Origin: an uncultured Pseudomonadales bacterium
GTDB taxonomy: Bacteria > Patescibacteriota > Microgenomatia > UBA1400 > MFAQ01
Assembly (NCBI GenBank): GCA_964429015.1
Contig: CAYSAM010000003.1
Location: 6,378-70,377 of the forward strand
DNA length: 64,000 nt
Direction: 5' to 3'
In this document: piece by piece, positions 4,537 to 54,251 of the stretch
Position numbering within the stretch: the stretch's first letter is position 1
Layout of the letters: every line of letters begins with the position of its first letter
The notes under the pieces: model-generated
Told to the model about the DNA's origin: nothing
The model's input: the letters and a program-made list of their open reading frames with translations, nothing else
Database searches by the model: none
Translations under genes and position numbers: made by a program

Positions 4537-4545
4537 TTTCTGGTT

Positions 4546-4622
4546 GTCATTCCCGACTCGATCGGGAATCCATCCCCATTTCGTCATTGCGAGGCTCGAC
4601 TTTAGGTCGACCGTGGCAATCC
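4546..4622. repeat. GTCAT-hairpin composite repeat element (family 1)
   Basis: GTC-ATTCCCGA-CTCGA-TCGGGAAT-CC (8-bp stem) followed by CGTCATTGCGAGGCTCGACTTTAGGTCGACCGTGGCAATCC. Related copies lie at 12100, 13056(rc), 27408, 32313, 34517, 43257 and 53706. Confidence 0.75.
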
Positions 4623-5382: not shown

Positions 5383-5444
5383 ATACCTACCATCATCCTT
5401 ACCAAAACACCCTCACGCCCGCAGGATTTTTTTGTGCCCAAATC

Positions 5445-5473
5445 TTGAATATTATCCTATATAGTGCTAAAAT
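5445..5473 (+). promoter_or_regulatory. sigma70-like promoter TTGAAT-17-TAAAAT with internal palindrome CTATATAG (paralogue A)
   Basis: ttgaat attatcctatatagtgc taaaat; an almost identical copy lies 700 bp downstream. Confidence 0.6.
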
Positions 5474-5519
5474 ACCCCAGATTTATCCAATCCACACTTT
5501 AAGTTAAAGGAGCTATCAC

Positions 5520-6099: not shown

Positions 6100-6133
6100 C
6101 CCCGTCGCCATCATGGCCACGGGGAATTTTTTT
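6100..6133 (+). terminator. rho-independent terminator
   Basis: CCCCGTCGCC-ATCAT-GGCCACGGGG followed by AATTTTTTT. Confidence 0.7.
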
Positions 6134-6144
6134 ATGCCCAAAGA

Positions 6145-6173
6145 ATGAAAATAATCCTATATAGTGCTAAAAT
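6145..6173 (+). promoter_or_regulatory. paralogous promoter copy B (ATGAAA-17-TAAAAT, same ATCCTATATAGTGCTAAAATACCCCA core)
   Basis: Bases 6151-6179 are identical to 5451-5479. Confidence 0.55.
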
Positions 6174-6204
6174 ACCCCAAAATTCCTTAATAAAAGGAGG
6201 CTAT

Positions 6205-12092: not shown

Positions 12093-12157
12093 AATCATTG
12101 TCATTGCGAGGCACGTCTTTATGACAGCCGCAAAAATCTATATAAATTGAATACAAA

Positions 12158-12973: not shown

Positions 12974-13122
12974 TAACGCCCTGCCCTGTCAAGGGAAGGG
13001 TTGGGGAAGGGTTTAAAAAGTGAGGGGGATTAAAAACATTAAGGCTTTATTCTGGATTCCGGATCAAGTCCGGAATGACAACTAACGCCCTGCCCTGTCA
13101 AGGGAAGGGTTGGGGAAGGGTT
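12974..13122. repeat. 40-bp perfect direct repeat (x2) flanking a family-1 GTCAT hairpin
   Basis: TAACGCCCTGCCCTGTCAAGGGAAGGGTTGGGGAAGGGTT occurs at 12974-13013 and 13083-13122. A related CCCTTTGACAAGGGAGAG lies at 12567-12590. Confidence 0.85.
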
Positions 13123-18814: not shown

Positions 18815-19294
18815 ATGGCTCAAAAACTATCCAAAAAATCCAAAGTTGCAGTAAAACCAGTAAAATCTGCTGTTACCAAAAAAGGTGCCCTAACCATGCC
18901 CAAAGAGTTTTTCTCTGGTCTAGGTCGTCGCAAAACAGCTGTTGCTCGTGTTCGTATCTGGTCTGGTAAGCAAGAAATGGTTGTCAATGGCAAGCCAATC
19001 TCTGAGTACTTCAAAGGTGATGTTTTCAAAAAAACTTACAACGCTCCTTTCTTAGCTACAGACTCCCTTGGTCAGTTTACTGGTAGTGTCAAAGTTGCTG
19101 GGTCCGGCCTTATGGGCCAGGTCGACGCTTTAGTCCACGGTATTGCTCGTGCTTTAATCAAAGTCAATCCAGAAGGCTACAAACAAGTCCTTCGCGATAA
19201 AGGTTTCCTAACTCGTGATCCACGCATGAAAGAAACCAGAAAGCCAGGCCAAGGTGGCAAGGCTCGCTCCAAGAAACAATCTCCAAAGCGTTAA
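18815..19294 (+). CDS. rpsI: 30S ribosomal protein S9
   Basis: ...GLGRRKTAVARVRIW...GGKARSKKQSPKR. Confidence 0.93.
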   Translation: MAQKLSKKSKVAVKPVKSAVTKKGALTMPKEFFSGLGRRKTAVARVRIWSGKQEMVVNGKPISEYFKGDVFKKTYNAPFLATDSLGQFTGSVKVAGSGLMGQVDALVHGIARALIKVNPEGYKQVLRDKGFLTRDPRMKETRKPGQGGKARSKKQSPKR

Positions 19295-19304
19295 TCTTAA
19301 AAAA

Positions 19305-19331
19305 ATACCCCCTGTTGGGGGTATTTTTTTG
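19305..19331 (+). terminator. rho-independent terminator
   Basis: ATACCCCC-TGTT-GGGGGTAT followed by TTTTTTT. Confidence 0.9.
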
Positions 19332-19344
19332 CTAAACTACATTA

Positions 19345-22300
19345 GTGACCAGTTTTTTTACCTATCTTCACAAGCTTAACAAAGTAAAAGTTGGAATAAT
19401 TTTTTTATCTCTTTGTTTTTTGGTGTCAGTCGCCGTTTTTATTTTGCCTCAACTTCGTCAAACTGCGCGCATCAAACTTGGATCAGTAGACGGGCTAACT
19501 ATAACCGCTGATAAGCAGGACTCTCTCGGTATCTTCACCAATACCCAATTTACCGTCAAAACAGATACTGATCTGAGCTCTTCCGACATCAAAAAGAACC
19601 TCACCATTTTTCCTGCTACAGAATTCGATATTCAGCCGATTTCTGCACGTCAATTCACCTTAACTCCAAAACAACACCTCCTAGATAACAGTATCTACAG
19701 AATCGAAGTCAAAACCAATCAAAAAACTTTTTCGTGGGCATTTCAAACCAAAAATGATTTTCGTGTAGTCAATTCTCTTCCAGCCGACAAAACAGCCTAC
19801 GTACCCACAAACACAGGTATAGAACTAATTTTTAGCCACGACAACTGGGAAGATCCAAAAAGTTTCTTTTCTATTCATCCCAAGACGGAAGTAAGTTTCG
19901 AGCGCCACGGCCGGACCGCCTCATTTTTGCCTAAGTCCTTAAATCCCGGAACTCTTTATACCGTTACTCTCAAAAAAGGTCTAAAGCTAAACGGTACTGT
20001 CGATATCCTAAAAGACGATTTCACTTTTCAATTCGAAACAAAACCTTCCACTCCAATACAATCAAAAGTAAGCTTTTCCAAACTAACTTACGAATTTTCT
20101 GACACAGTAACACCAGCTTTCGATGTCTATGTTCCCAGTGAATCACTTTCGGCTATTTCTGCTGATATTTACAAATATCCCGGAGACTCAAGTTTTCTAA
20201 ATCATCTAAATGAAAAAATCTCTACCCCCTCGTGGGCAACTTACTCGGTTAGTAGCGATGTTTTACCAACTAACAATCTTACCAAAGTGGTTTCCCTAAA
20301 TCTAAATATTCAAAAGCAAAAATATAGTAACTTTTTCTCACTTCCCCAAACCCTACCTCTTGGACAATACCTTATCGAGGTATCTGCTGGTGGTCAAAAA
20401 TCCCAAGCACTATTTCAGGTTACCAATGTTTCCGCTTACTTTACCCAAAGTGGCACCAAAACTCTAGTTTGGGTCAACAGTTTAGCAAACGCTCCACTTT
20501 CTGGTGCTACGGTAACTTACAACAATAACAATCAGACCACCGATCAAAACGGCATCTCTTACTTCGAAACTGAACCCTCAGATATACAACTAGGTTTTCA
20601 AAATAAAACAACTATAGTTGCCGTGAAGCAGTCACTTGGAGCTCTTTATTTTCCTTTAAAGAGCGATTATTCTATTTTTTACCAAAAGCAATCACGCCAA
20701 TCAGATAAGTACTGGAGTTATATTTATCTAGACAGGCCCACCTATCTTCCAACAGATACTGTAAAGCTTTGGGGTTTACTCAAAAACAGAGATCTGCCAG
20801 ATAAAAAAACAGAATTTACCTTAGAGGTTACTCGCTCCGATTATCATTCTTGGGACTATCAGCCCATTGCTGTCTATTCCAAAAAAGTTACAACAACAGA
20901 TTTAGGAACCTATCTCGAAGAAATCAACCTCAATCAGTTTTCACCAGGCTGGTATACACTCAGTTTTAAGGTTGGTAATGATATCGTTATTAATTCAGGT
21001 TTTAGTGTTGAAACCTATGTCAAACCAGCCTACAAAATTTCTGTTCAACCTTCGGTCAAAGCTGCTTTTTCTGGAGATCAAATTAATCTTTTAGGTCAGG
21101 CCCAATTTTTTGAGGGGACACCTGTTGTTGGTTTACCGCTAAAAAGCTACAATTCTGACAGTAGTCTAGCTTCACTTACTCCAATCACTGACAACCAGGG
21201 TAAATTTTCAGTTTCTGTTCCTGTAAATAATGGTTCTGCAAATTATTCTCCTAATAATGTGAGTTTTACTTTCTCTCCAAAAAATCCTGAAGAGGGGCAA
21301 ATTTCTGGAAGCGCCAGCCTTGCTGTCTTTTCCTCTTCTCTCTATTTTCCTTATCCACGCATAGACAATAAAAACAATCAATCATCAGTTACTATCAACC
21401 TTCGTCAAGTAGATCTTCAAAAATACTCTCCCACAGCCGACCTCGCCGAGGTTTTTAATCCAGCACCAAATCAAAATGTTCACGCTGTTATTTATCAAAT
21501 CGATTGGCTCAAAAATCAGGTTGGTACGTACTACGATTTTATAAACAAGGTAACCTCTCCAACTTACGAATACTCACAATCTCAAAAGCAAATAGGGGAG
21601 TTTGACTTGGTTACAAATAGTTCTGGTCAAGCCACTTATAGTGTCAATCTCCCCGAAAATACAACATATAAAATTTCATTTTCTTCCAAGGATTCACTGG
21701 GCAGGACGGTTACTCAAGAAGCCATTTTGTACGGTAACAATTATGGTAATTCAGACGACAATTTTCTTTATCTAAAAACCGATAAAGAACAAGAGAAACC
21801 AAATACGTATAATATCGGCGAGCAAGTTAACCTTCATATTGAACAGGGTGGTAAAACTATAGCCGAAAACGAGTCAGACAAGTTTCTTTTTATTGTTTCT
21901 CAGCGCGGAATCAGATCATATTATCTCTCAGATAATGGCCTATTCAGCTTTAAATTTCCCGAAACCTTTATTCCAAACTTTTTTATCCAAGCAGTAAGAT
22001 TCAACGGTCAAACCTACCAAGCTACCGAAAATCTAAGCCTTTACTTCAACCAGGACTCCAAAAAATTAAACATTAAACTTTCCTCAGATAAACCTCTGTA
22101 CGAACCTGCTGATACTGCCAAAATTAACGTTACCACTTCAGACAATAGTGGCAATCCTATCCCTGCTGAAGTAGTCCTCAACGTGGTCGACGAGTCATAT
22201 TATGCACTCTTCACAGATTATCTCAATCCACTTTCAGAGATATACAAATCTGTCCAAACAGATATCATTACTACTTACGCCACACATCAATATCCAAGCA

Positions 22301-24528
22301 ACAACTCCGGAGCCGAAGGTGGTGGTTGTTTTCTTCCTGGAACCCAAATTCTTATGGCCGATGGAAAATCAAAAGGAATAGAGGAAATAAAAGTAGGTGA
22401 TAATATTAAAACTCGTCAAAGTCTCACTGACAAAAAACTAGTTAGTGCTAAGGTCAAAGAAGTCTTCACTCATCAAGTCAACGGCTACCTGCTAATAAAC
22501 AATCATCTTCGTGTCACCAAGGAGCACAACCTATATGTCAATGGTCGTTGGTTGACGGCAGGTGAGGTTAGGATTGGAGATAGTTATTTGTCAGTCGATG
22601 GAACTTACCAAACAATCAAGTCTATAGAGCCTCAGTCTGGTTTGTACAATGTTTACAACTTATCTATCGACAATCTTCACACCTACTTTGCTGAGGGCTT
22701 TTATGTTCACAACGAAAAAGGCGGTTCCCTTTTCAAAGACACAGCCTTTTTCGGCAACCTAACTACCAATAATCAAGGTCAAGGGTCTGTTGATATAAAA
22801 TTACCCGACAATCTCACTTCTTGGCGCGTGTCTTCAGTGGGACTCAGTTCCAATCTACAAGCAGGCAGTAAAACATTTCCACTGATTGTCAGGTTACCGT
22901 TTTTCCTCACCGCTACTCTTAATACTGACTACTTAGTTTCAGATAAACCTGTTGTTGTTGTACGCGCCTTTGGAGACAGTCTAGTTTCTGGTGATCAGGT
23001 AAATCTAAAAGTCGAGTCTTCTACCTTAAGTATCTCAAAATCAGTTTCTGGTCAAGCTTTCGAGCCCATAAAAATTGACATCAGTCCTCTAAAAGAAGGT
23101 CAACACAAACTAATTTTTACCGCCAGCTCACCAAAAGGTGGTTACAAGTTAGAAAGAACCATCAATGTTCTATCTACTCATCTTTCAAGGAGGTTTACAA
23201 AGTCTATCCCTCTAGCCGAAAATATTTCTTCATCCTCTTTTTCTGCTCAAAATCAAAAACTCGTAATTGCAGATCAAGGGTTAGGGAAGTATTATTCTCA
23301 ACTAACGTCTTTAACTTCCACTTGGGGTGATCGTCTAGATCAAAAAAACGCTCGATCCTTATCTCAGGAGTTGCTAAATCAATATTTCCAGGATCAAAAA
23401 CCCGTGGAGAAAATAGATTTCAATCTATACCAAACAAATACCGGAGGAATATCCCTCTTTCCTTACTCTGGTGCCGACATCGAAAACACATCCTTCATAG
23501 TAGCTTTAAGCAAAAATAAAATTGACAACTCCGCTGTTAAAAGCTACCTGTACTCAGCTCTTACCAAAGCAAAAGATCCAAATACCGCCAGTAAAGCACT
23601 ATTTGGTATTGCCAGTTTGGGTGAGCCGGTTCTTATCCAGATCAACAACATCATCGAAGATTCAAAAATAGATTTGGAGACAAAACTTTATCTTGGTTTG
23701 TCACTAGCAGAAATAGGTGACAAGGAAAAATCTTTATCACTCTACAAGGAGCTACTTGCCACAACCAAATTAGAAGAACAAAACATTTCCATCATTGCAC
23801 TTTTTGCTGACCTGTCAGCCATACTTGGTCAGTCAGAGGCAGACGATTTTCTTAACCGTGTCTTTACCACCTCATCTAAGGAGTACTCATTAGTAAGTCA
23901 AAAACTATTTGCACTTCAGAGTCTGTTACCAAGAGCCAGTACAGAACCAGTCGCTTTTACTTATAGTCTTGCTGGCACAGAAAAAAAGATCACTCTTGCC
24001 AAAGGGCAAAACTTAAACCTCTATGTTACGGAAAAGGACTTAGCCACTCTAAAATTCTCAAATATCTCTGGTCAAGCCATCATCACTTCTGTTATTTCTG
24101 TTCCTGTAGAGCCTGCCAAAATGGCAGCCAATTCCAGCCTAGTTCTTACCAGAACCTTTTATGTTGCGGGTAAAGAATCAACTTCAATAGGTGAATCAGA
24201 CTTAGTTAAAGTCGGTCTTACTTTCCAGATAAACGAAAATCTTCAAGATGGTTGTTATCAAGTTCAGGATGTTTTACCTTCCGGTCTAAAACCTGTTTCT
24301 GCCTTGTTATACCCCGGCCAAGACACCGATTTTTATCACTACCCCTACCAAATCGATGGCCAAAAAGTTAGTTTTTGTGTAACTAAAAACAGCACTAACA
24401 AAAATATTTACTACTATGCAAGAGTCGTAAACCAAGGCGTTTTCAAAGCAGAAAATGCCTTAATTCAGTCCTTAGCTAGCCCCTCCATTTTTACTCTCTC
24501 GCCTTCTTCTGAAGTAAATATAAAATGA
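19345..24528 (+). CDS. large alpha-2-macroglobulin-family surface protein (1727 aa) with embedded Hint / bacterial intein-like domain
   Basis: N-terminal TM/signal; Big-like repeats; A2M-domain signature ...LPDNLTSWRVSSVGL...RLPFF... with VVDESYYAL upstream. Residues 995-1123 run from CFLPGTQILMADG to FYVHN, which is Hint-like. No CxEQ thioester. Confidence 0.8.
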   Translation: MTSFFTYLHKLNKVKVGIIFLSLCFLVSVAVFILPQLRQTARIKLGSVDGLTITADKQDSLGIFTNTQFTVKTDTDLSSSDIKKNLTIFPATEFDIQPISARQFTLTPKQHLLDNSIYRIEVKTNQKTFSWAFQTKNDFRVVNSLPADKTAYVPTNTGIELIFSHDNWEDPKSFFSIHPKTEVSFERHGRTASFLPKSLNPGTLYTVTLKKGLKLNGTVDILKDDFTFQFETKPSTPIQSKVSFSKLTYEFSDTVTPAFDVYVPSESLSAISADIYKYPGDSSFLNHLNEKISTPSWATYSVSSDVLPTNNLTKVVSLNLNIQKQKYSNFFSLPQTLPLGQYLIEVSAGGQKSQALFQVTNVSAYFTQSGTKTLVWVNSLANAPLSGATVTYNNNNQTTDQNGISYFETEPSDIQLGFQNKTTIVAVKQSLGALYFPLKSDYSIFYQKQSRQSDKYWSYIYLDRPTYLPTDTVKLWGLLKNRDLPDKKTEFTLEVTRSDYHSWDYQPIAVYSKKVTTTDLGTYLEEINLNQFSPGWYTLSFKVGNDIVINSGFSVETYVKPAYKISVQPSVKAAFSGDQINLLGQAQFFEGTPVVGLPLKSYNSDSSLASLTPITDNQGKFSVSVPVNNGSANYSPNNVSFTFSPKNPEEGQISGSASLAVFSSSLYFPYPRIDNKNNQSSVTINLRQVDLQKYSPTADLAEVFNPAPNQNVHAVIYQIDWLKNQVGTYYDFINKVTSPTYEYSQSQKQIGEFDLVTNSSGQATYSVNLPENTTYKISFSSKDSLGRTVTQEAILYGNNYGNSDDNFLYLKTDKEQEKPNTYNIGEQVNLHIEQGGKTIAENESDKFLFIVSQRGIRSYYLSDNGLFSFKFPETFIPNFFIQAVRFNGQTYQATENLSLYFNQDSKKLNIKLSSDKPLYEPADTAKINVTTSDNSGNPIPAEVVLNVVDESYYALFTDYLNPLSEIYKSVQTDIITTYATHQYPSNNSGAEGGGCFLPGTQILMADGKSKGIEEIKVGDNIKTRQSLTDKKLVSAKVKEVFTHQVNGYLLINNHLRVTKEHNLYVNGRWLTAGEVRIGDSYLSVDGTYQTIKSIEPQSGLYNVYNLSIDNLHTYFAEGFYVHNEKGGSLFKDTAFFGNLTTNNQGQGSVDIKLPDNLTSWRVSSVGLSSNLQAGSKTFPLIVRLPFFLTATLNTDYLVSDKPVVVVRAFGDSLVSGDQVNLKVESSTLSISKSVSGQAFEPIKIDISPLKEGQHKLIFTASSPKGGYKLERTINVLSTHLSRRFTKSIPLAENISSSSFSAQNQKLVIADQGLGKYYSQLTSLTSTWGDRLDQKNARSLSQELLNQYFQDQKPVEKIDFNLYQTNTGGISLFPYSGADIENTSFIVALSKNKIDNSAVKSYLYSALTKAKDPNTASKALFGIASLGEPVLIQINNIIEDSKIDLETKLYLGLSLAEIGDKEKSLSLYKELLATTKLEEQNISIIALFADLSAILGQSEADDFLNRVFTTSSKEYSLVSQKLFALQSLLPRASTEPVAFTYSLAGTEKKITLAKGQNLNLYVTEKDLATLKFSNISGQAIITSVISVPVEPAKMAANSSLVLTRTFYVAGKESTSIGESDLVKVGLTFQINENLQDGCYQVQDVLPSGLKPVSALLYPGQDTDFYHYPYQIDGQKVSFCVTKNSTNKNIYYYARVVNQGVFKAENALIQSLASPSIFTLSPSSEVNIK
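22327..22713 (+). mobile_element. Hint (BIL/mini-intein-like) domain inserted in the A2M-like protein
   Basis: Begins with Cys and ends with His-Asn (HN); 129 aa. The +1 residue is Glu, not Cys/Ser/Thr, which argues for BIL-type over a canonical intein. Confidence 0.65.
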
Positions 24529-26258
24529 AGTTTTGGCAGCTTATTCTTGGTTTTTCTCTGATGCTATCTATTGTCTTTTTGTCATTCCGGTCCCGGTCTA
24601 ATACTCAGTCCTCATCATTGCTAGTAGAGCGTGGCAATCCAGAGTCAATCTCGACCACCTTTGCCTACGATCAAAATACTTTTCTAAATTCACTTTCATC
24701 TTCAAATTTCTCAAAAAATAAATACGCAAAAGGAGTAATTATTCCTCATCACCTCCTGGCCTCTCCGCTTATTGTCAAAGGAATAAGTATGCTCAGCGTA
24801 ATTGATCCTCAAAGTACTGTTATTCTGCTATCTCCCAATCATGCAAACCTAGGAAGCTGCGACATTGTCTCTTCAAATCTTCCCTGGTCCACTCCATATG
24901 GAGAAGTCGAAATAGACAAAAAATTGCAAGATGAGTACTTAGTTTCAAAACAAATTTGCATTGATAATTACAGTATAAAAGAAGAACATGGTATCGCTAC
25001 CATCTTGCCATATCTTAAGTATTTTTACCCTCAAGTCAAAGTTCTCCCACTCGCATTTAAAAAAAATATTTCCGAGGAAAAGTTAGAAAAAATAGCCTCA
25101 TTGCTTTCACAAACTTTAAAATATCAAACTAACTTTTTAATTAGCTCAATTGATTTTTCACACAACCTTAGTCTTTCAGAGTCCCAAAAAAAAGATTTGC
25201 TAACCGAAAAATATATCGAATACAAAGACGTCAAAACCATAAAAAATCTTTCCTCTGACTTTCTAGATTCGCCATCGGTACTAATAAATACTTTGCAAAT
25301 AGCCCAAAAAAACGATCTTACTACAAATCAAGAAAATCACAAATCTTCGTACGATTTTGGCTCAAACAGCGATGGGGTTACAAGCTATTTTGTTTATAGT
25401 CTGACTCCAAAACAAACAGATCAAAATTTGACTCTTTTATTTGGCGGCGATGTTATGCTTGGTCGCTCTGTAAATACTCAAATTAGAAATTTTGCCGACT
25501 ATGCCTGGCCAACCAAACTAGTTTCCGAGTTCACAAAACAGTCAGATCTTTTTCTTATAAACCTAGAGTCACCATTCAAGTCAGGGTGTGAGCCAACCGA
25601 CAAGGGTATGGTTTTTTGTGCTCACCCCAATAGCGTGGCCACCCTCGTTAGCGCTGGTGTCGACGTTGTCAATATAGCCAATAACCATATTTATAATCAG
25701 GGCAAAGAGGGTTTATTAGAAACTATCAATATTTTAAATAAAAATAACATTGTATTTGTAGGGGCGGACCCCCGTGTCCGCCCGTTAGATAACCCATTTA
25801 GTTCAATCATCACCATCAAAAATACCAAAATAGCCATCTTAGGTTTCAATGATATTGCACCCTTTCCCCAAGAGGTAAACAAATTGACAGTAGAAAATCT
25901 AACAAGCCAAATTAAAGGTGTTCGTTCTCAGGCAGACTTAGTCATTGTTACTTTTCACTGGGGAAACGAATACCAAAAAGCCAGCCCTCGTCAAAAGGAG
26001 TATGCTCACCTAGCTATCGACCAAGGTGCAGATGCCGTCATCGGTGCCCACCCTCACTGGGTGCAAGAGTTCGAGGAATACCAAGGCAAGCCTGTTTATT
26101 ATTCACTTGGCAATCTGGTCTTCGATCAAATGTGGTCCGAGGAAACCAAAAGTGGACTATTAGTAAAGCTTACCTATCAGAATAAAAAGCTTATCAAAAC
26201 CGAAAACTTTCCCGTAAAAATCGAAAACTACGGCCAACCGTATATAATCAAATTATGA
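24525..26258 (+). CDS. Memo-like (AmmeMemoRadiSam B family) :: CapA/PGA_cap metallophosphatase fusion protein with N-terminal TM
   Basis: N-terminal half: GVIIPHHLLASP...LLSPNH...EHGIATILPYL...SSIDFSHN (Memo pattern). C-terminal half: LLFGGDVMLGRSV...IANNHIYNQG...FHWGNEYQ...GAHPHW (CapA). ATGA overlap with the upstream gene. Confidence 0.65.
   Translation: MKFWQLILGFSLMLSIVFLSFRSRSNTQSSSLLVERGNPESISTTFAYDQNTFLNSLSSSNFSKNKYAKGVIIPHHLLASPLIVKGISMLSVIDPQSTVILLSPNHANLGSCDIVSSNLPWSTPYGEVEIDKKLQDEYLVSKQICIDNYSIKEEHGIATILPYLKYFYPQVKVLPLAFKKNISEEKLEKIASLLSQTLKYQTNFLISSIDFSHNLSLSESQKKDLLTEKYIEYKDVKTIKNLSSDFLDSPSVLINTLQIAQKNDLTTNQENHKSSYDFGSNSDGVTSYFVYSLTPKQTDQNLTLLFGGDVMLGRSVNTQIRNFADYAWPTKLVSEFTKQSDLFLINLESPFKSGCEPTDKGMVFCAHPNSVATLVSAGVDVVNIANNHIYNQGKEGLLETINILNKNNIVFVGADPRVRPLDNPFSSIITIKNTKIAILGFNDIAPFPQEVNKLTVENLTSQIKGVRSQADLVIVTFHWGNEYQKASPRQKEYAHLAIDQGADAVIGAHPHWVQEFEEYQGKPVYYSLGNLVFDQMWSEETKSGLLVKLTYQNKKLIKTENFPVKIENYGQPYIIKL
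25749..25779. repeat. REP-like palindrome (family 2) inserted in-frame within the CapA-like CDS
   Basis: GTAGGGGCGGACCCCCGTGTCCGCCCGTTAG; near-identical to the element downstream of the RAYT at 44628. Confidence 0.7.
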
Positions 26259-27394
26259 AAAAACTTTTTACCCTACTTTTTTTAATTGCATTCATTTTTG
26301 TTACAAAACCAGTTGAGGCTGTTTACTTTGGCTCTGGCGAAAAACTTTCTTTTCCCAAAACTCAAAAATTCAACGAAACAGTTTTTGTTGCTGCTTCCGA
26401 CCTAAACTTCGAAGCCGACGTCACTGGGGACCTTCTCTGTGCCGGTCAAAATATTACTATCTCCGGCAAAATTACCGGCGATATTCTCTGTGCAGGTCAA
26501 AATATTACTATCACAGGTACCGTCGACGGCAACGTCCGCGTAGTAGGCCAACAGGTTAATCTAAATGGTTCTGTATCACGCAACTTAAGTGTTGTTGCTC
26601 AAGTCCTAAAACTTTCTAGCAGCTCCAATATCAAAGGAGATATTTACTACGGAGTCCAAAGTGTTGATTTGCAAGGTGTTTTAGGTCGAGATCTGGCCGG
26701 CGGCTCAGAAAGCATCAATATTTCTGGGTCGCTATTAAGAAACGCCAAAATAGCCGCCAACAAAATAAATATTGACACCAATGCTAAATTGGGAGGAGAT
26801 CTAGAATACTTTATCGAAAAAACCGGTACTGCCAACCTCAACGAAAAAAGTATCAAGGGGAAAGTTACTCGCCACGAAGTCGAATTAAAGGAAAAAGATC
26901 AAATCAATAGTGGTATCAAAAAAGTTACGCCTGCAATTGTAGTTACTAAAACAGTCCTCTCAATCATATCCTCAATTTTGTTAGCTTGCATGCTTTTGTA
27001 TTTTGTCCCTGCTAGAGTTTCTCAAGTCGTCACAGTTCAAAAATCTCATCCAGTTAAATCAGCCTTTGTTGGTTTGGCGGTTTTGGTTACCACGCCTTTA
27101 GCTATTATTATTTCTAGTATTTCTATAGTCGGTTTGGGATTAGCTGCTGTTATTTTACTTTTTTACATAATTAGTCTTATTCTTGCTTCTAGGTTTGTAG
27201 CTATTTATATCGGTGGTTTGTTAATGGAAAAAATCACGGCAACTGGTAAGTCAGTGTATCTTAGCGCTGCACTAGGTTGTTTGGCTTTTGGCATAGTCGC
27301 TATTATCCCTGTAGTTGGACCAATTGTTTCTTTCCTAATTTTTCTAATTGGGCTTGGATCAACTTTTCTCTCATACCTCCCCTCAGAAAAATAA
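26255..27394 (+). CDS. bactofilin-like beta-helix repeat protein with signal peptide and C-terminal multi-TM domain
   Basis: Repeats GDLLCAGQNITISGKITGDILCAGQNITITGTVDGNV...; four hydrophobic helices at the C-terminus; overlaps the upstream stop. Confidence 0.55.
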   Translation: MKKLFTLLFLIAFIFVTKPVEAVYFGSGEKLSFPKTQKFNETVFVAASDLNFEADVTGDLLCAGQNITISGKITGDILCAGQNITITGTVDGNVRVVGQQVNLNGSVSRNLSVVAQVLKLSSSSNIKGDIYYGVQSVDLQGVLGRDLAGGSESINISGSLLRNAKIAANKINIDTNAKLGGDLEYFIEKTGTANLNEKSIKGKVTRHEVELKEKDQINSGIKKVTPAIVVTKTVLSIISSILLACMLLYFVPARVSQVVTVQKSHPVKSAFVGLAVLVTTPLAIIISSISIVGLGLAAVILLFYIISLILASRFVAIYIGGLLMEKITATGKSVYLSAALGCLAFGIVAIIPVVGPIVSFLIFLIGLGSTFLSYLPSEK

Positions 27395-27407
27395 CCAGGT
27401 TCAACCT

Positions 27408-27503
27408 GTCATGCCGGTCTTGATGAGTTTGTCCCGAGTACCCCCTCGGGAGCATCCAGTCCACGTCATTGCGATGCACGACTTTAGGTCGGCCGCGGCA
27501 ATC
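27408..27503. repeat. GTCAT-hairpin composite repeat element (family 1)
   Basis: GTCATGCCGGTCTTGATGAG...TCCCGAG-TACCCC-CTCGGGAG...CGTCATTGCGATGCACGACTTTAGGTCGGCCGCGGCAATCT. Confidence 0.75.
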
Positions 27504-27562
27504 TATAAAAATAAATTCCACTTTCCTGTTCAACCAAACATATCTCTTGCTACAATTATTTA

Positions 27563-27859
27563 ATGCCCATTCACCACTCACTTCACAAAATAAAAAAGAC
27601 CCATACCGACTATCTAGATTCCACCATGTCCGTCGTTGCTTTTATCAGTCCATTTGCAGTTACCCCTCAAATTCTCCAAATCTACCAAACCAAAGACGTC
27701 CAAGGAATATCACTTGTAACTTGGATTATTTCTATTCTTTCTTCTGTAATTTGGCTTGCTTATGGCTTACACCACAAAGATAAGCCAATAATCTTTAACT
27801 CAATCTTAGGAACTCTCTTCTGTTCTATGATTACTGTAGGAATATTAATATACAGATAA
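27563..27859 (+). CDS. SemiSWEET / PQ-loop sugar transporter (likely starts at ATG 27626, 77 aa)
   Basis: ...SPFAVTPQILQIYQTKDVQGISLVTWII...WLAYGL...; three TM helices. The first 21 codons overlap the repeat element. Confidence 0.65.
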   Translation: MPIHHSLHKIKKTHTDYLDSTMSVVAFISPFAVTPQILQIYQTKDVQGISLVTWIISILSSVIWLAYGLHHKDKPIIFNSILGTLFCSMITVGILIYR

Positions 27860-27884
27860 AAATATTGATACTCATCCTATATTG

Positions 27885-27955
27885 TCGGGGTACTCGGAAT
27901 TGAACCGAGATCATGCGCACCCCATGCGCACATACTGCCGTTATACTATACCCCG
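27885..27955 (-). tRNA. tRNA-Pro (anticodon GGG)
   Basis: Minus-strand read CGGGGTA-TA-GTAT-AACGGCA-GTAT-G-TGCGC-ATGGGGT-GCGCA-TGAT-CTCGG-TTCAATT-CCGAG-TACCCCG-A: 7-bp acceptor, TTCAATT T-loop, U33, G37. CCA is not encoded. Confidence 0.8.
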
Positions 27956-32291: not shown

Positions 32292-32350
32292 GGGGCGAGG
32301 TTCCTCTCGCCCCCGTCATTGCGAGTCACGGCTTCAGGTCGGCCACGGTG
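32292..32350. repeat. perfect 8-bp hairpin GGGGCGAG-GTTCCT-CTCGCCCC followed by a family-1 GTCATTGCGAG element
   Basis: ggggcgaggttcctctcgcccccgtcattgcgagtcacggcttcaggtcggccacggtg. Confidence 0.7.
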
Positions 32351-32487
32351 CTTCTCAGTAGGTTTCTGCCTTTAGCCCCTGACCTAGATCCGTGGTAAAT
32401 GTCGAAATTAGTTTTTGTCGAAGACAAAATAACTTTCGACCAATCTATACAAACTACACTAAGTGAAAATAGTACTTAGTCAAAAAT

Positions 32488-34498: not shown

Positions 34499-35413
34499 AT
34501 GTCTTTATCCACTTCACGTCATTGCGAGTCACAAAGTGCCGAAGCAATCCACAAACAACCCACCCTCATCGTCTGCGGCACCACTTCCTCCGGCAAATCT
34601 GCCTACACATTCAAGTTAGCCAAAGAGTACAAAAAAGAAGTAAACATTCTCTCCGTCGATTCTCGTCAGTTTTATAAGGACATTCCCATAGTTTCAGGAC
34701 AAGACGACCTTTCAGAGTTACCATCAAACGTCACTCTTTTTGGTCAGGGTTTTTTAGAAGCAGATCAGGTTTCTAATATTAGCGATTTTCAAAAATACGC
34801 CAATCAAATTATCATCAAAACACAAAGTGAAAACAAAAAATTAATTATTGTTGGTGGCTCTGGACTTTATCTCAAAGCTATTACCGAAAACTTAGGTAAT
34901 GCCAAAGTCCCCCCAGACGCAATCTTTAGAAAGGAAGCTGAAAGTTACTCCGTATCTACTCTCCAAAATATTTTAAAAAGTTTGAACATTTCACTCTTTA
35001 ATTCATTAAATAACTCAGATATAAACAATCCTCGTCGCCTCATTCGCCATATCGAAATTTCCCAATCACCAAAAATGTCTCAAAAATCTACCATCTACCA
35101 TCTACCATCTACGACCTATTCCTGGCTCGGTCTCCGCAAATCCCCCGAAGCTCTTCTTCAATCTATCAAAGAACGCGTCGTCTTGCGTCTCAAAAATGGT
35201 GCTATAGAAGAAGTAGAGACTCTACAAAAAAAATATCCAAATCAATCTTTACCGATTTACAGCACTTTGGGTGTAAGCCAAATACAAAAATATCTTTGCC
35301 AAGAAATTACCAAAGAAGAACTAATCAAAAAATGGACAATCGATGATAATAACTATGCCAAACGCCAAATGGTCTGGTTCAAAAAACAACCTCAGATTGT
35401 TTGGTATGATTAA
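34499..35413 (+). CDS. miaA: tRNA dimethylallyltransferase
   Basis: ...TLIVCGTTSSGKSAYTFKLAKEY...ILSVDSRQFYKDIPIVSG.... The first ~18 codons are the translation of a family-1 repeat (34517-34550). Confidence 0.8.
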   Translation: MSLSTSRHCESQSAEAIHKQPTLIVCGTTSSGKSAYTFKLAKEYKKEVNILSVDSRQFYKDIPIVSGQDDLSELPSNVTLFGQGFLEADQVSNISDFQKYANQIIIKTQSENKKLIIVGGSGLYLKAITENLGNAKVPPDAIFRKEAESYSVSTLQNILKSLNISLFNSLNNSDINNPRRLIRHIEISQSPKMSQKSTIYHLPSTTYSWLGLRKSPEALLQSIKERVVLRLKNGAIEEVETLQKKYPNQSLPIYSTLGVSQIQKYLCQEITKEELIKKWTIDDNNYAKRQMVWFKKQPQIVWYD

Positions 35414-44183: not shown

Positions 44184-44631
44184 GCACTCAATCAGGTTAC
44201 CTGGTTATGATTACTCACAAAGTGGGTGGTATTTTGTCACCATTTGTTCATATAAACACGAATGTATTTTTGGGGAAATTGTTGACGGAGAAATGAAATT
44301 AAACGAAATTGGGAAAAACGTGGAACAAAAAATTTTGGAAATGCCAAAGTATTATGGAATAAAAATTGATTGTTTTTGCGTTATGCCAAATCATATACAT
44401 GTTGTTATGGTTATTCCCAACCGTTCGACAATAATAGGGCAGGCGCAGGGGCCTGCCCCTACCATTGGTGAATATGTTAAACGTTTAAAAACCATTACGA
44501 CCAAAAAACAAAAAATGTGGCAACGCAATTATTATGAACATATCGTTCGTGATGATGTGGACATCTCTCGAATTCGTGAATATGTTAATTCAAATGTAAA
44601 AAATTGGATAATTGATAAATTAAATGCGTAG
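44143..44631 (+). CDS. REP-associated tyrosine transposase (RAYT, IS200/IS605 TnpA-like HuH)
   Basis: ...LPGYDYSQSGWYFVTICS...VMPNHIHVVM (HuH)...RNYYEHIVR (catalytic Tyr). No in-frame ATG downstream of the secF stop, so the start is uncertain (41-nt overlap with secF, or a non-canonical start). Confidence 0.75.
   Translation: MLFGINYSKKIKNRHSIRLPGYDYSQSGWYFVTICSYKHECIFGEIVDGEMKLNEIGKNVEQKILEMPKYYGIKIDCFCVMPNHIHVVMVIPNRSTIIGQAQGPAPTIGEYVKRLKTITTKKQKMWQRNYYEHIVRDDVDISRIREYVNSNVKNWIIDKLNA
44437..44466. repeat. REP-like palindrome inside the RAYT CDS
   Basis: GGGCAGGC-GCAGGG-GCCTGCCC. Confidence 0.6.
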
Positions 44632-44705
44632 GGGCAGGCCCCCGTGCCTGCCCTTGTATATCCCCCATGCCTGCCCTTGTATATCCCCCATGCCTGCCCT
44701 TGAAC
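44628..44705. repeat. REP cluster downstream of RAYT: full palindrome GGGGCAGGCCCCCGTGCCTGCCC plus two tandem 23-bp half-site repeats (CCCATGCCTGCCCTTGTATATCC)
   Basis: Same family as 25749-25779. Confidence 0.8.
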
Positions 44706-44713
44706 TGCCCCCG

Positions 44714-53149: not shown

Positions 53150-53683
53150 ATGGAAACAGAAAAATGCCCCAAATGTGGCGCACCCTTAGGAGATGTTCAA
53201 GAAACAGCAACTGGACGCAAGTTGCAACGTTGTTCGGCAGGTTCTTGGAATAAAGAAACCAAAAAAAACGAAGGTTGTGACTATGTTAAGTGGTTACAAG
53301 TAGAACCCCAAACCTTAGACGAAAAATGCCCCAAATGTGGCGCACCACTAGTGCTTCAAGTAACTCGTTTTGGTAAAAAAATGAAAAAATGTAGTGCTGG
53401 CGGATGGGACAAAGAAGCCAAAAAGGCTACTGGTTGTGATTTTGTGGAGTGGGTAAATGGCACCACCGAAAAGTTAGACGAAAAATGCCCTCAATGCGGC
53501 GAGGAACTCGTTCTTTATACTACCGCTAACGGCAAAAGAATGAAAAAGTGTTCCACTTCTGGTTGGGATAGAGAAGCCAAACGTGCCACCGGTTGTCCTT
53601 ATGTTGAGTGGCTCAAGGCGGAATATAAAGCAGCTCCAGCTAACGGCGAAGAATTTTTGCCCCCCGAAGAAGACATCTTCTAA
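53150..53683 (+). CDS. protein made of three tandem topoisomerase-type C4 zinc-ribbon modules
   Basis: Three repeats of CP(K/Q)CG..L-x20-CS(A/T)(G/S)GW-x13-GC(D/P)(Y/F)VEW; the DNA repeats about every 160 bp. Confidence 0.6.
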   Translation: METEKCPKCGAPLGDVQETATGRKLQRCSAGSWNKETKKNEGCDYVKWLQVEPQTLDEKCPKCGAPLVLQVTRFGKKMKKCSAGGWDKEAKKATGCDFVEWVNGTTEKLDEKCPQCGEELVLYTTANGKRMKKCSTSGWDREAKRATGCPYVEWLKAEYKAAPANGEEFLPPEEDIF

Positions 53684-53705
53684 ACTTACGTCACAAAAAT
53701 GATCT

Positions 53706-53731
53706 GTCATGCCGGACTTGATCCGGCATCC
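53706..53731. repeat. family-1 GTCAT hairpin element
   Basis: GTC-ATGCCGGA-CTTGA-TCCGGCAT-CC. Confidence 0.75.
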
Positions 53732-53756
53732 AGTTACAAATAAAAACGTTTTATCT

Positions 53757-54251
53757 ATGAAAAAAAAGAAGCATAGTCAAATTGATAAAATTTCTACCTG
53801 GCTCACCGAGTCTATAGGTACAAATACCTCTCTAGTCGTGCACACAATCCTATTTGTAGGGATTTTTTCACTGTCTTTATTTGGATTAACTATCGACAAA
53901 ATACTGCTCATTCTTACTACGGCCGTTTCCTTGGAGGCCATCTATCTAGCCATCTTTATCCAAATGACGGTTAACAAAACCACCGAGAGCTTGGCTAGTG
54001 TAGAAGAAAACATCGACGAAATCCAAGAGGACGTAGACGACATTCAGGAAGACGTCGAAGACATCCAAGAGGACGTAGACGACATTCAGGAGGATGTAGA
54101 CCATCTAGAAACAAACATCAAAGATATTTCTGAGGACTACATCGACGACGAGGTAGAGGAGAGTGATACCGTCAAAATCCTAAGCAATATTGAGTCACAA
54201 CTTAATTTACTCAAAGAGGAAATTGCCGAACTAAAAAAGAAAGCAAGTTAG
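53757..54251 (+). CDS. DUF1003-family membrane protein with acidic heptad tandem repeat
   Basis: 2 TM followed by ...IFIQMTVNKTTE... and a coiled coil. 21-nt tandem repeats at 54021-54110 encode (IQEDVDD)x4. Confidence 0.55.
   Translation: MKKKKHSQIDKISTWLTESIGTNTSLVVHTILFVGIFSLSLFGLTIDKILLILTTAVSLEAIYLAIFIQMTVNKTTESLASVEENIDEIQEDVDDIQEDVEDIQEDVDDIQEDVDHLETNIKDISEDYIDDEVEESDTVKILSNIESQLNLLKEEIAELKKKAS

Follow-up and report, generated by a model that had tools for sequence, protein, structure and literature searches.

A Memo-partnered alpha-2-macroglobulin-like protein with a bacterial intein-like domain at its bait position: a candidate third genomic type of bacterial macroglobulin system

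Introduction

Two genomic types of bacterial alpha-2-macroglobulin (A2M) have been described, both from Gram-negative bacteria: Type I proteins contain a thioester and are associated with PBP1c, while Type II proteins lack the thioester and belong to the mag operon (PMC5764988). Here we describe a locus of three genes in a 64,000-nucleotide stretch of DNA (the window) from an uncultured member of the Patescibacteriota, within the candidate phyla radiation (CPR) (NCBI GenBank assembly GCA_964429015.1, contig CAYSAM010000003.1, positions 6,378 to 70,377 of the forward strand), whose nearest named relatives are Candidatus Collierbacteria. The locus encodes a giant A2M-like protein (g1), a fusion of a Memo-like domain to a CapA/PGA_cap domain (g2, or Memo::CapA), and a bactofilin-like membrane protein (g3). 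Because the module departs from the operon organization of both Type I and Type II, it is best read as a third, Memo-partnered genomic type of bacterial A2M system, represented here by a form whose bait position holds a bacterial intein-like (BIL) domain and whose Memo is fused to CapA.

Two further described families bear on the comparison. BIL domains lack the +1 nucleophile and yield mainly N- and C-cleaved products, with ligation also possible (PMC7664689). The lasso-peptide epimerase MslH uses a metal and two His residues to deprotonate a peptide residue at its C-alpha (PMC10406935). The original prediction for this locus had not recognized the three-gene combination as a described system, and the searchable literature holds no account of it that we could find: full-text searches returned no paper joining a macroglobulin with a BIL or Hint domain, with Memo and an operon, or, in any relevant way, with an anti-sigma factor of the extracytoplasmic function (ECF) type. 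Every statement about function made below is computational.

The A2M-like Protein and Its Bait Position

The three genes are codirectional, and each stop codon overlaps the following start codon in an ATGA, read directly from the sequence at 24525-24528 (g1/g2) and 26255-26258 (g2/g3). The three-gene operon that had been proposed is borne out at both junctions. Its members are as follows.

19345 to 24528, plus strand: g1, 1,727 amino acids, GTG start codon
24525 to 26258, plus strand: g2, 577 amino acids, N-terminal anchor followed by Memo-like and CapA/PGA_cap domains
26255 to 27394, plus strand: g3, 379 amino acids, signal peptide, beta-helix, and membrane domain

The profiles recovered in g1 by Pfam are Big_5, MG2, A2M_BRD, A2M, and a weak bMG10. 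An AlphaFold2 (AF2) model of residues 528-1727 (predicted local distance difference test [pLDDT] 85.5) retrieves ECAM (5a42, E = 3e-45) and Salmonella A2M (4u48) as its top Foldseek matches, and also matches C5, CD109, and TEP1, the E values ranging from 1e-45 to 1e-35, as well as eukaryotic A2M. The protein has the array of macroglobulin-like (MG) domains, the bait-region domain, and the C-terminal MG/receptor-binding domain of the A2M superfamily, and the earlier assignment of g1 to this superfamily is therefore upheld by both profiles and fold. That reading overlooked two properties, a Hint domain of the BIL kind at the bait and the loss of the thioester. As g1 contains no CxEQ motif and only four Cys in total, it is without a thioester; the CxEQ string occurs in one of 120 g1 homologs. 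A long, variable, protease-accessible bait is likewise absent from g1, its position being filled by GAEGGG-Hint-EKGG. The features of g1 are listed below.

19390 to 19446, plus strand: N-terminal transmembrane (TM) anchor, residues 16-34, from a hydropathy scan; 15 residues precede it
21799 to 22209, plus strand: bait-region domain A2M_BRD, residues 819-955 (PF07703, 3.1e-11)
22309 to 22326, plus strand: N-terminal half of the Gly-rich loop, GAEGGG, residues 989-994, from alignments; N-extein junction of the Hint domain; low AF2 confidence
22327 to 22713, plus strand: Hint domain (BIL), residues 995-1123, 129 amino acids (PT-HINT, 3.9e-14)
22714 to 22740, plus strand: C-terminal half of the loop, EKGGSLFKD, from alignments; precedes the conserved F-x-D-T-A-F start of MG7
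22741 to 22920, plus strand: "A2M" domain (MG7), residues 1133-1192 (PF00207, 1e-8)
23281 to 23934, plus strand: all-helical TED-like domain, residues about 1313-1530, from AF2 secondary structure; no thioester motif

The Hint domain sits between A2M_BRD and the start of MG7, in the middle of the loop, and the AF2 model of g1 is confident except for the two short linkers on either side of it. Its motifs are C995 (Cys1), T1058 to H1061 (TKEH, the TxxH of block B), and the terminal H1122-N1123; Cys1, TxxH, and HN are invariant in 35 homologs. The +1 residue is Glu1124, and in about 40 relatives this position is occupied by E, D, Q, A, or N, never by C, S, or T. No homing endonuclease is present in the g1 Hint domain. 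A profile search with the Hint domains ranks 2lwy, a "bacterial intein-like domain," first (1.8e-15), followed by the PT-HINT domains of toxins and then by true inteins. The domain has the Cys1, TxxH, and HN of class 1 inteins but not their +1 Cys/Ser/Thr, while all of the features of an A-type BIL are found: Hint fold, Cys1, terminal HN, no +1 nucleophile or endonuclease, and an N-terminally anchored host protein. Because the +1 residue is Glu, cleavage of the BIL type is likelier than canonical splicing.

Identity to the window protein is 43-68% for the Hint domain versus 27-49% for its host, and the divergence of the former tracks that of the latter. In the Memo-linked A2M clade, Hint domains occur sporadically among the CPR members, and two close relatives without the domain (P0130 and P0139) read GAEGGG followed directly by GGSLFRDTA at the same site. 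Two divergent CPR A2M-like proteins, at L013 (4490-9685, minus strand) and L031 (25-6282) among the numbered homologous loci, combine a canonical thioester motif (GCVEQ and CNEQ, respectively) with a Hint domain that occupies this bait site.

The closest solved relatives of the domain are the A-type BIL domains (Clostridium thermocellum BIL4, 2lwy) and the PT-HINT domains of polymorphic toxins, with which it has in common Cys1, a terminal His-Asn, the lack of a +1 nucleophile and of an endonuclease, and an exported host. It differs from them in occupying a new host and site, the bait of an A2M, in remaining at that one site over deep divergence, and in not preceding a toxin module. Furin-type processing of complement C3, C4, and C5 produces two associated chains and leaves the protein unactivated. 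By comparison, g1 would be cut at the structurally equivalent linker; however, the cut would be autocatalytic, made by the embedded Hint domain.

Among described A2Ms, Type II MagD/YfaS resembles g1 in its A2M fold, its lack of CxEQ, its association with the cytoplasmic membrane, and its possession of at least one membrane-anchored partner. However, where the mag operon supplies MagA, B, C, E, and F, the partners of g1 are Memo::CapA and a membrane protein with a beta-helix, and the module is not a six-gene operon of the magABCDEF type. Moreover, g1 has an N-terminal TM anchor of its own, occurs in a monoderm/CPR host, and carries a loop plus Hint domain in place of the bait. Type I ECAM/YfhM and Salmonella A2M are its best structural matches and follow a similar two-gene logic of a large trap with an envelope enzyme, but g1 lacks the thioester, the lipobox, and a pbpC neighbor, and has Memo as its partner rather than PBP1c.

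The Memo::CapA Fusion

The description of g2 as a Memo::CapA fusion behind an N-terminal TM segment stands, since both Pfam profiles are matched and a hydrophobic anchor spans residues 3-21. The motifs quoted in the original prediction (PHH, SPNH, EHG, SIDFSH, and GDLLCAGQNITISGKITGD) are all found in the translation.

24678 to 25253, plus strand: Memo domain, residues 52-243 (Pfam PF01875, 9.8e-24; NCBIfam AmmeMemoSam_B, 1.3e-25)
25431 to 26129, plus strand: CapA/PGA_cap domain of metallophosphatase fold, residues 303-535 (Pfam, 1.1e-62)

The Memo domain scores 84.4 bits against a cut-off of 27 in Pfam and 90.2 against 26 for TIGR04336. Its residues H75, H106, D210, and H213 align with the conserved His/His/Asp/His site of MEMO1 (H49, H81, D189, and H192). 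In profile and active site g2 thus resembles Memo and AmmeMemoRadiSam protein B, but it differs from these in being exported or membrane-anchored, fused to CapA, paired with an A2M, and free of AMMECR1 and radical-SAM neighbors. Neither AMMECR1 nor the radical-SAM activase adjoins the module in the window or in L001-L004, L086, L088, and L169-171; a single radical-SAM gene about 7 kb downstream in L001 and L002 belongs to a shared downstream block outside the module. The A2M-linked Memo proteins have lipoprotein or signal sequences or TM anchors, and for this reason they are predicted to be exported, unlike classical Memo. The envelope location originally proposed for the locus is consistent with these anchors and lipoprotein signals.

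Residues invariant in alignments of the CapA domain are D309, N346, E348, N386, N387, H388, H478, E482, H509, H511, N530, D534, and Q535, so that g2 combines PGA_cap with the metallophosphatase-type residues of CapA/PgsA proteins. The closest solved structure is MslH (8gq9), which has the dyads His88/Asp91 and His295/Asp11; its His88 and His295 correspond to the conserved H388 and H511 of g2, D309 is conserved as well, and the additional His, H509, suggests a fuller metal site. Although fold, His equivalents, and metal ligands are those of CapA/PgsA and MslH, no PgsB, PgsC, or lasso-peptide genes lie near g2. PgsB (Mur-ligase-like) and PgsC are not listed within about 10 kb in any locus with called genes, a search that covered these neighborhoods and not the rest of the genome. 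Some sources name homologs of g2 "poly-gamma-glutamate synthesis protein."

Conservation of the A2M-Memo Pair

Homologous loci (numbered from L001) were collected in part by two scans. The genome scan, restricted to one genome per species, was analyzed with custom hidden Markov models built from this family, which a very divergent Memo could escape. The metagenome scan was seeded with Hint-less A2Ms and counted loci with at least 1.3 kb downstream, GC content serving as a proxy for their diversity.

Memo::CapA fusions at 50, 48, and 37% identity to g2 each lie directly 3' of an A2M-like gene. The pair also occurs in the genome scan at L006, L007, L009, L010 (a Bacillota metagenome-assembled genome), L035, and L047, and in Pseudobacteroides cellulosolvens and Dethiosulfatibacter an A2M gene is followed by a standalone Memo. 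In the metagenomes a Memo gene lies within 1 kb and on the same strand at 25 of 55 A2M loci (three of the 25 also with CapA), and these 25 loci cover GC contents between 0.32 and 0.67. Of the Hint-bearing A2Ms examined, the three most divergent (27-36% identity) are each followed by Memo or Memo::CapA in unrelated surroundings. One of the divergent CPR loci (L013) has an A2M, then a separate Memo with stop/start overlap and a divergently transcribed CapA, whereas another (L031) has an A2M followed by CapA. Depending on the locus, Memo therefore stands alone, is joined to CapA in one protein, or is encoded separately from it, while the core of A2M followed by Memo spans CPR, Firmicutes, and high-GC lineages. 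Overlap or near-abutment of the large gene and Memo recurs in L001, L003, L004, L005, L013, and L169; as the same overlap is found in these homologous loci, the junction is not a chance trait of one genome.

A2M and Memo make up the conserved unit, to which CapA may or may not be added, as a fusion or as a neighbor. This result modifies the idea of a conserved three-gene neighborhood: A2M genes with Memo or CapA extend far past the close relatives of the window, but the triple does not hold as a unit. The domain assignments of all three proteins, in turn, pass profile-based confirmation. We consider it very probable that A2M and Memo form a functionally coupled, exported module.

The pair can be compared with the loop itself, taken as the stretch bounded by two conserved motifs, Y-x-S-H and F-x-D-T-A-F, in all A2Ms of the fetched loci. 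A short Gly-rich AExGG loop, (G)AExGG(E)GG, is found in 40 of the 43 Memo-linked A2Ms, the other three having near-variants. By contrast, 29 of 31 Memo-less A2Ms have a variable stretch of 40-75 amino acids, as expected of a true bait. In a neighbor-joining tree the loop types separate into two sister clades, and the Memo-linked A2Ms fall in one of them. Bait loss, the conserved loop, and the Memo partner are kept together across a clade of several phyla. A Fisher test of loop type against Memo gives p = 6e-15, a value that overstates independence, because the tree shows essentially one deep split, and that we do not use as independent evidence.

At the Memo-less loci, the genes downstream of the A2M include a LytTR regulator, RpiR, DUF1961, FapA, GGDEF, and others. 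A divergent Memo or another constant partner hidden at these positions was considered and rejected, as the downstream genes are unrelated.

The Bactofilin-like Membrane Protein

The third protein matches Pfam Bactofilin (3.9e-9; 37.1 bits versus a cut-off of 27.9). Its AF2 model (pLDDT 92) begins with a signal helix, continues with about 185 amino acids of beta-helix (residues 23-208), and ends in a helical membrane domain, which corresponds to DUF8173 in the Pfam annotation of homologs. A Foldseek search of the model against the PDB gave nothing significant (best E = 0.027), its hits being generic beta-helices; the alignment to bactofilin 6rib has a target-normalized TM-score of 0.69 and a probability of 0.96, but an E value of 0.76. 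The bactofilin-like label thus holds for the beta-helix fold only, and not in the sense of a cytoplasmic polymer-forming bactofilin, from which g3 differs by its signal-peptide-like N-terminus and its C-terminal polytopic membrane domain. Given the signal peptide and the membrane domain, the beta-helix is predicted to face outward.

A Bactofilin/DUF8173 neighbor is confined to the lineage of the window (window, L001-3, L006, L007) and to L061 and L139, which are independent cases with other gene orders around the bactofilin-like gene. The g3 family as a whole is widespread, and its members in Acidobacteria are fused to a zf-HC2 anti-sigma domain. In the module, g3 is a lineage-restricted accessory, probably serving as a membrane scaffold or sensor.

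Alternative Partners and Sigma-Linked Homologs

Memo::CapA also occurs without an A2M. In six loci (L005, L012, L029, L041, L046, L080) its neighbor is a DUF3160 protein, and in eight others (L011, L015, L019, L024, L036, L039, L067, L081) it lies beside an unannotated, TM-anchored family of 580-660 amino acids; the junctions with these alternative partners often have the same gene overlap as the A2M pairs. A concealed homology of the DUF3160 proteins or the 580-660 amino acid family to A2M, or of the two to one another, was rejected, the hhalign probabilities being below 1%.

In 15 loci (L047, L097, L099-L101, L109, L112, L122, L133, L139, L145, L161, L162, L165, L170) a gene for an ECF-type sigma factor (TIGR02937) lies immediately 5' of the A2M gene on the same strand, and the A2M open reading frames (ORFs) begin at or over the sigma stop codon. 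These A2Ms have a cytoplasmic N-terminal extension of 40-160 amino acids before the TM segment, with a common P..F(K/R)E.L..RL motif, and neither Pfam nor NCBIfam matches an anti-sigma domain in the extensions. Position and topology suggest the place of an anti-sigma factor, and, as no profile recognizes the extension, the idea draws on these two properties. One of the loci (L139:3423-12132) encodes, in order, a g3-like protein (Bactofilin/DUF8173), an ECF sigma factor, an A2M-like protein, and an M50 (site-2-protease-like) plus CBS protein, which hints that in some bacteria the g3 family and A2M belong to a signaling set based on regulated proteolysis. With 15 residues before the TM segment of g1 and no sigma gene, this sigma layer is absent from the window.

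Proposed Mechanism and Alternative Explanations

Taken together, we propose that the locus encodes an extracytoplasmic module of the envelope with the A2M-Memo pair at its core, a reading that, with its processing and g2 steps included, we rate evenly between right and wrong. A single N-terminal helix would anchor g1, leaving its multi-MG body outside the membrane. The protein belongs to a clade of monoderm/CPR A2M-like proteins that have lost the thioester and have a short Gly-rich loop, GAExGG-(E)GG, where the bait would be. After export, the Hint domain should form a thioester at Gly994-Cys995 and cyclize Asn1123, and would either excise itself or, more probably for a BIL, cut the chain at the loop. 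This would leave either a religated loop or an A2M of two chains that do not come apart; by analogy, the MagD halves remain together after bait cleavage (PMC5764988). The protein may serve in protease trapping.

For its part, g2 would be cotranslated with g1, exported, and act as a peptide-directed surface enzyme. Its most likely substrate would be the partner protein, perhaps the conserved loop, since Memo presence and loop type covary across the family, since Memo and CapA occur fused, split, or alone beside A2M, and since without an A2M the fusion adjoins another large exported protein. Action of Memo::CapA on the A2M itself is nevertheless a tentative proposal, with the balance tilted somewhat against it.

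A number of observations weigh against this account. About half of the A2M family has no Memo at all, and the covariation with the loop amounts to roughly one deep split (three Fitch changes), which counts as one or a few events instead of 70 independent ones. Memo is kept by A2Ms with and without a Hint domain, so that it is no simple substitute for Hint cleavage. The biochemical role of Memo::CapA, including contact with A2M, is putative. For the MslH equivalog NF038314, g2 reaches 75.8 bits, far short of the cut-off of 700, MslH Asp91 aligns with Asn391, and the signal-anchor topology of g2 is ambiguous by charge and is assigned from homologs. In addition, some A-type BIL domains splice (Dassa 2004 and Aranko 2013, as reported by the papers citing them), for which reason the sequence does not fix whether g1 is cleaved or spliced.

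One alternative is that the two genes encode a guard and a repair enzyme in the manner of ECAM and PBP1c, g1 being a broad noncovalent trap like MagD, and Memo::CapA having the wall (stem peptides or gamma-glutamyl links, for instance) as a target of its own, so that the two are neighbors because both defend the envelope. The A2M fold of g1 fits this view, as does the precedent of MagD, which without a thioester traps proteases after bait cleavage and has operon partners (PMC5764988). CapA relatives also act on peptides or gamma-glutamyl polymers, and the ECF sigma genes preceding A2M in 15 loci are typical of envelope-stress regulons. However, the bait of Memo-linked A2Ms is short and conserved, the opposite of what a broad-spectrum trap needs, the fusion pairs with unrelated large exported proteins too, and the loci consulted list no cell-wall genes among their called genes; we regard this alternative as unlikely. 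Somewhat more credible, if still a minority view, is that the Hint domain is a selfish, intein-like passenger that splices out, restores the loop, and has no function in the module. Its sporadic distribution in the CPR part of the clade, the uninterrupted GAEGGG-GG of close Hint-less relatives, its intact catalytic residues, and its insertion in a conserved motif, as is usual for inteins, would all be explained, and ligation by a BIL without a nucleophilic side chain is possible (Aranko 2013, as cited in PMC7664689). Set against these are the lack of Cys, Ser, or Thr at +1 throughout about 40 sequences, the absence of a homing endonuclease, conservation exceeding that of a host whose divergence it tracks, occupation of the same site in the thioester-bearing proteins of L013 and L031, and the mainly cleaved products of BIL domains (PMC7664689).

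Two simpler explanations fare far worse. The close relatives L001-L004 have a common recA-recX-rny block downstream, as would be expected if the gene order were inherited synteny without a functional link. However, Firmicutes, high-GC lineages, and further classes of CPR have the pair between wholly different flanks, in fused, split, and divergent arrangements that recur, and with conserved stop/start overlaps. Unrelated flanks and variable arrangements show that synteny is not the source of the pairing, and we consider this explanation contradicted by the data and next to impossible. The CapA annotation could instead point to a poly-gamma-glutamate capsule locus, given the PGA_cap match at 1e-62 and the names given to some homologs, but PgsB and PgsC are not listed within about 10 kb in any locus with called genes, and CapA is dispensable in many A2M-Memo pairs, which makes a capsule role highly improbable. 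For the same want of PgsB/PgsC-type genes near the loci inspected, the polymer-anchoring apparatus suggested originally finds no support. Surface defense, the other function then suggested, is likewise unsupported in its antiphage sense, as PADLOC models match none of the three proteins.

Within the preferred reading, an extracytoplasmic A2M-Memo module, a bolder version can be framed that we think improbable as a whole. Rather than trapping proteases in general, the Memo-linked A2Ms would act as spring-loaded devices on the surface, with a trigger dedicated to them, and in many bacteria as sensors. Their conserved pseudo-bait would be cut or chemically modified by their own exported Memo or Memo-CapA protein, or in CPR by an embedded BIL, which would generate a bait thioester. 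For many bacteria, the A2M ectodomain is pictured as the sensing part of an ECF anti-sigma factor, encoded in the order ECF sigma, A2M (with a 40-160 amino acid cytoplasmic extension and one TM segment), and Memo, with site-2-protease-like and g3-like genes added in one locus. The operon in the window would then be a CPR-reduced form, free of signaling, of a new class of envelope sensor/effector.

Genomic Surroundings and Repeats

The window is AT-rich (GC about 39%). Upstream of g1, Pfam identifies a ribosomal-protein cluster with L13 and S9 (rpsI) that ends at 19294, and downstream of g3 come, in order, REP-like (repetitive extragenic palindromic) repeats, a SemiSWEET-like ORF, tRNA-Pro, and recA-recX. 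The hairpin between rpsI and g1 suggests that the module begins its own transcription unit, and the elements after g3 may mark the end of the operon.

19309 to 19331, plus strand: terminator-like hairpin with T-run, between rpsI (S9) and g1
25762 to 25783, plus strand: REP-like GC-rich hairpin, GGGCGGAC-CCCCGT-GTCCGCCC, in frame within a loop of the CapA domain of g2
27400 to 27510, plus strand: GC-rich REP-like elements right after g3, of families repeated across the window
4543-4621, 12099-12138, 13052-13082, 27408-27503, 32304-32353, 34507-34532, and 53705-53733 of the window: REP-like palindromes

A REP element had been proposed to lie in frame in the CapA part of g2, and this is correct. 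The hairpin encodes GADPRVRP, a segment that alignments show to be an insertion relative to most g2 homologs, and has sibling copies at 44437 and 44632 (three found versus none expected in the window). The cluster at 44431-44712, with three tandem 23-nucleotide units (CCCCCRTGCCTGCCCTTG...) and an inverted pair, is of the same family. Several families of GC-rich REP-like palindromes (GTCATTGCGA..., TGTCATKCCGGA...) are present, mostly in intergenic positions. Other g2 homologs have apparently similar repeat-derived insertions in frame, such as VIPG..RNPSG near the N-terminus.

The ORF downstream of the repeats (27563-27859, 98 amino acids) has MtN3/PQ-loop matches and resembles a single-repeat transporter of the SemiSWEET kind. 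The tRNA-Pro(GGG) lies at 27884-27955 on the minus strand, and an Rfam scan of the window found nothing besides it. In relatives with 50% identity, a protein of more than 2100 amino acids without a Pfam match (L001:1-4733) is encoded directly upstream of the A2M gene, the equivalent position in the window being occupied by ribosomal protein genes. Elsewhere in the window, an ORF at 53150-53683 has three direct repeats of a CPxCG-type zinc-ribbon-like unit with a period of about 160 nucleotides, and a run of 21-nucleotide tandem repeats lies near it, at 54006-54110. Two 59-nucleotide direct repeats (5426-5484 and 6126-6184), 86% identical and 700 nucleotides apart, are located near ORF starts and may be duplicated promoter or leader regions.

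Implications

With about 60 related loci, the A2M systems described here would constitute a third and widespread type in monoderm/CPR bacteria, with an exported Memo as the fixed partner, and they offer a concrete, testable context for the bacterial Memo family. A BIL at the point of A2M triggering or maturation amounts to a natural experiment on how bait cleavage is coupled to conformation, and the recurrent ECF sigma genes before related A2Ms point to a possible route for sensing proteases or surface damage. For CPR biology, the locus brings to light one of the largest proteins on the surface of these episymbionts, together with its putative processing machinery.

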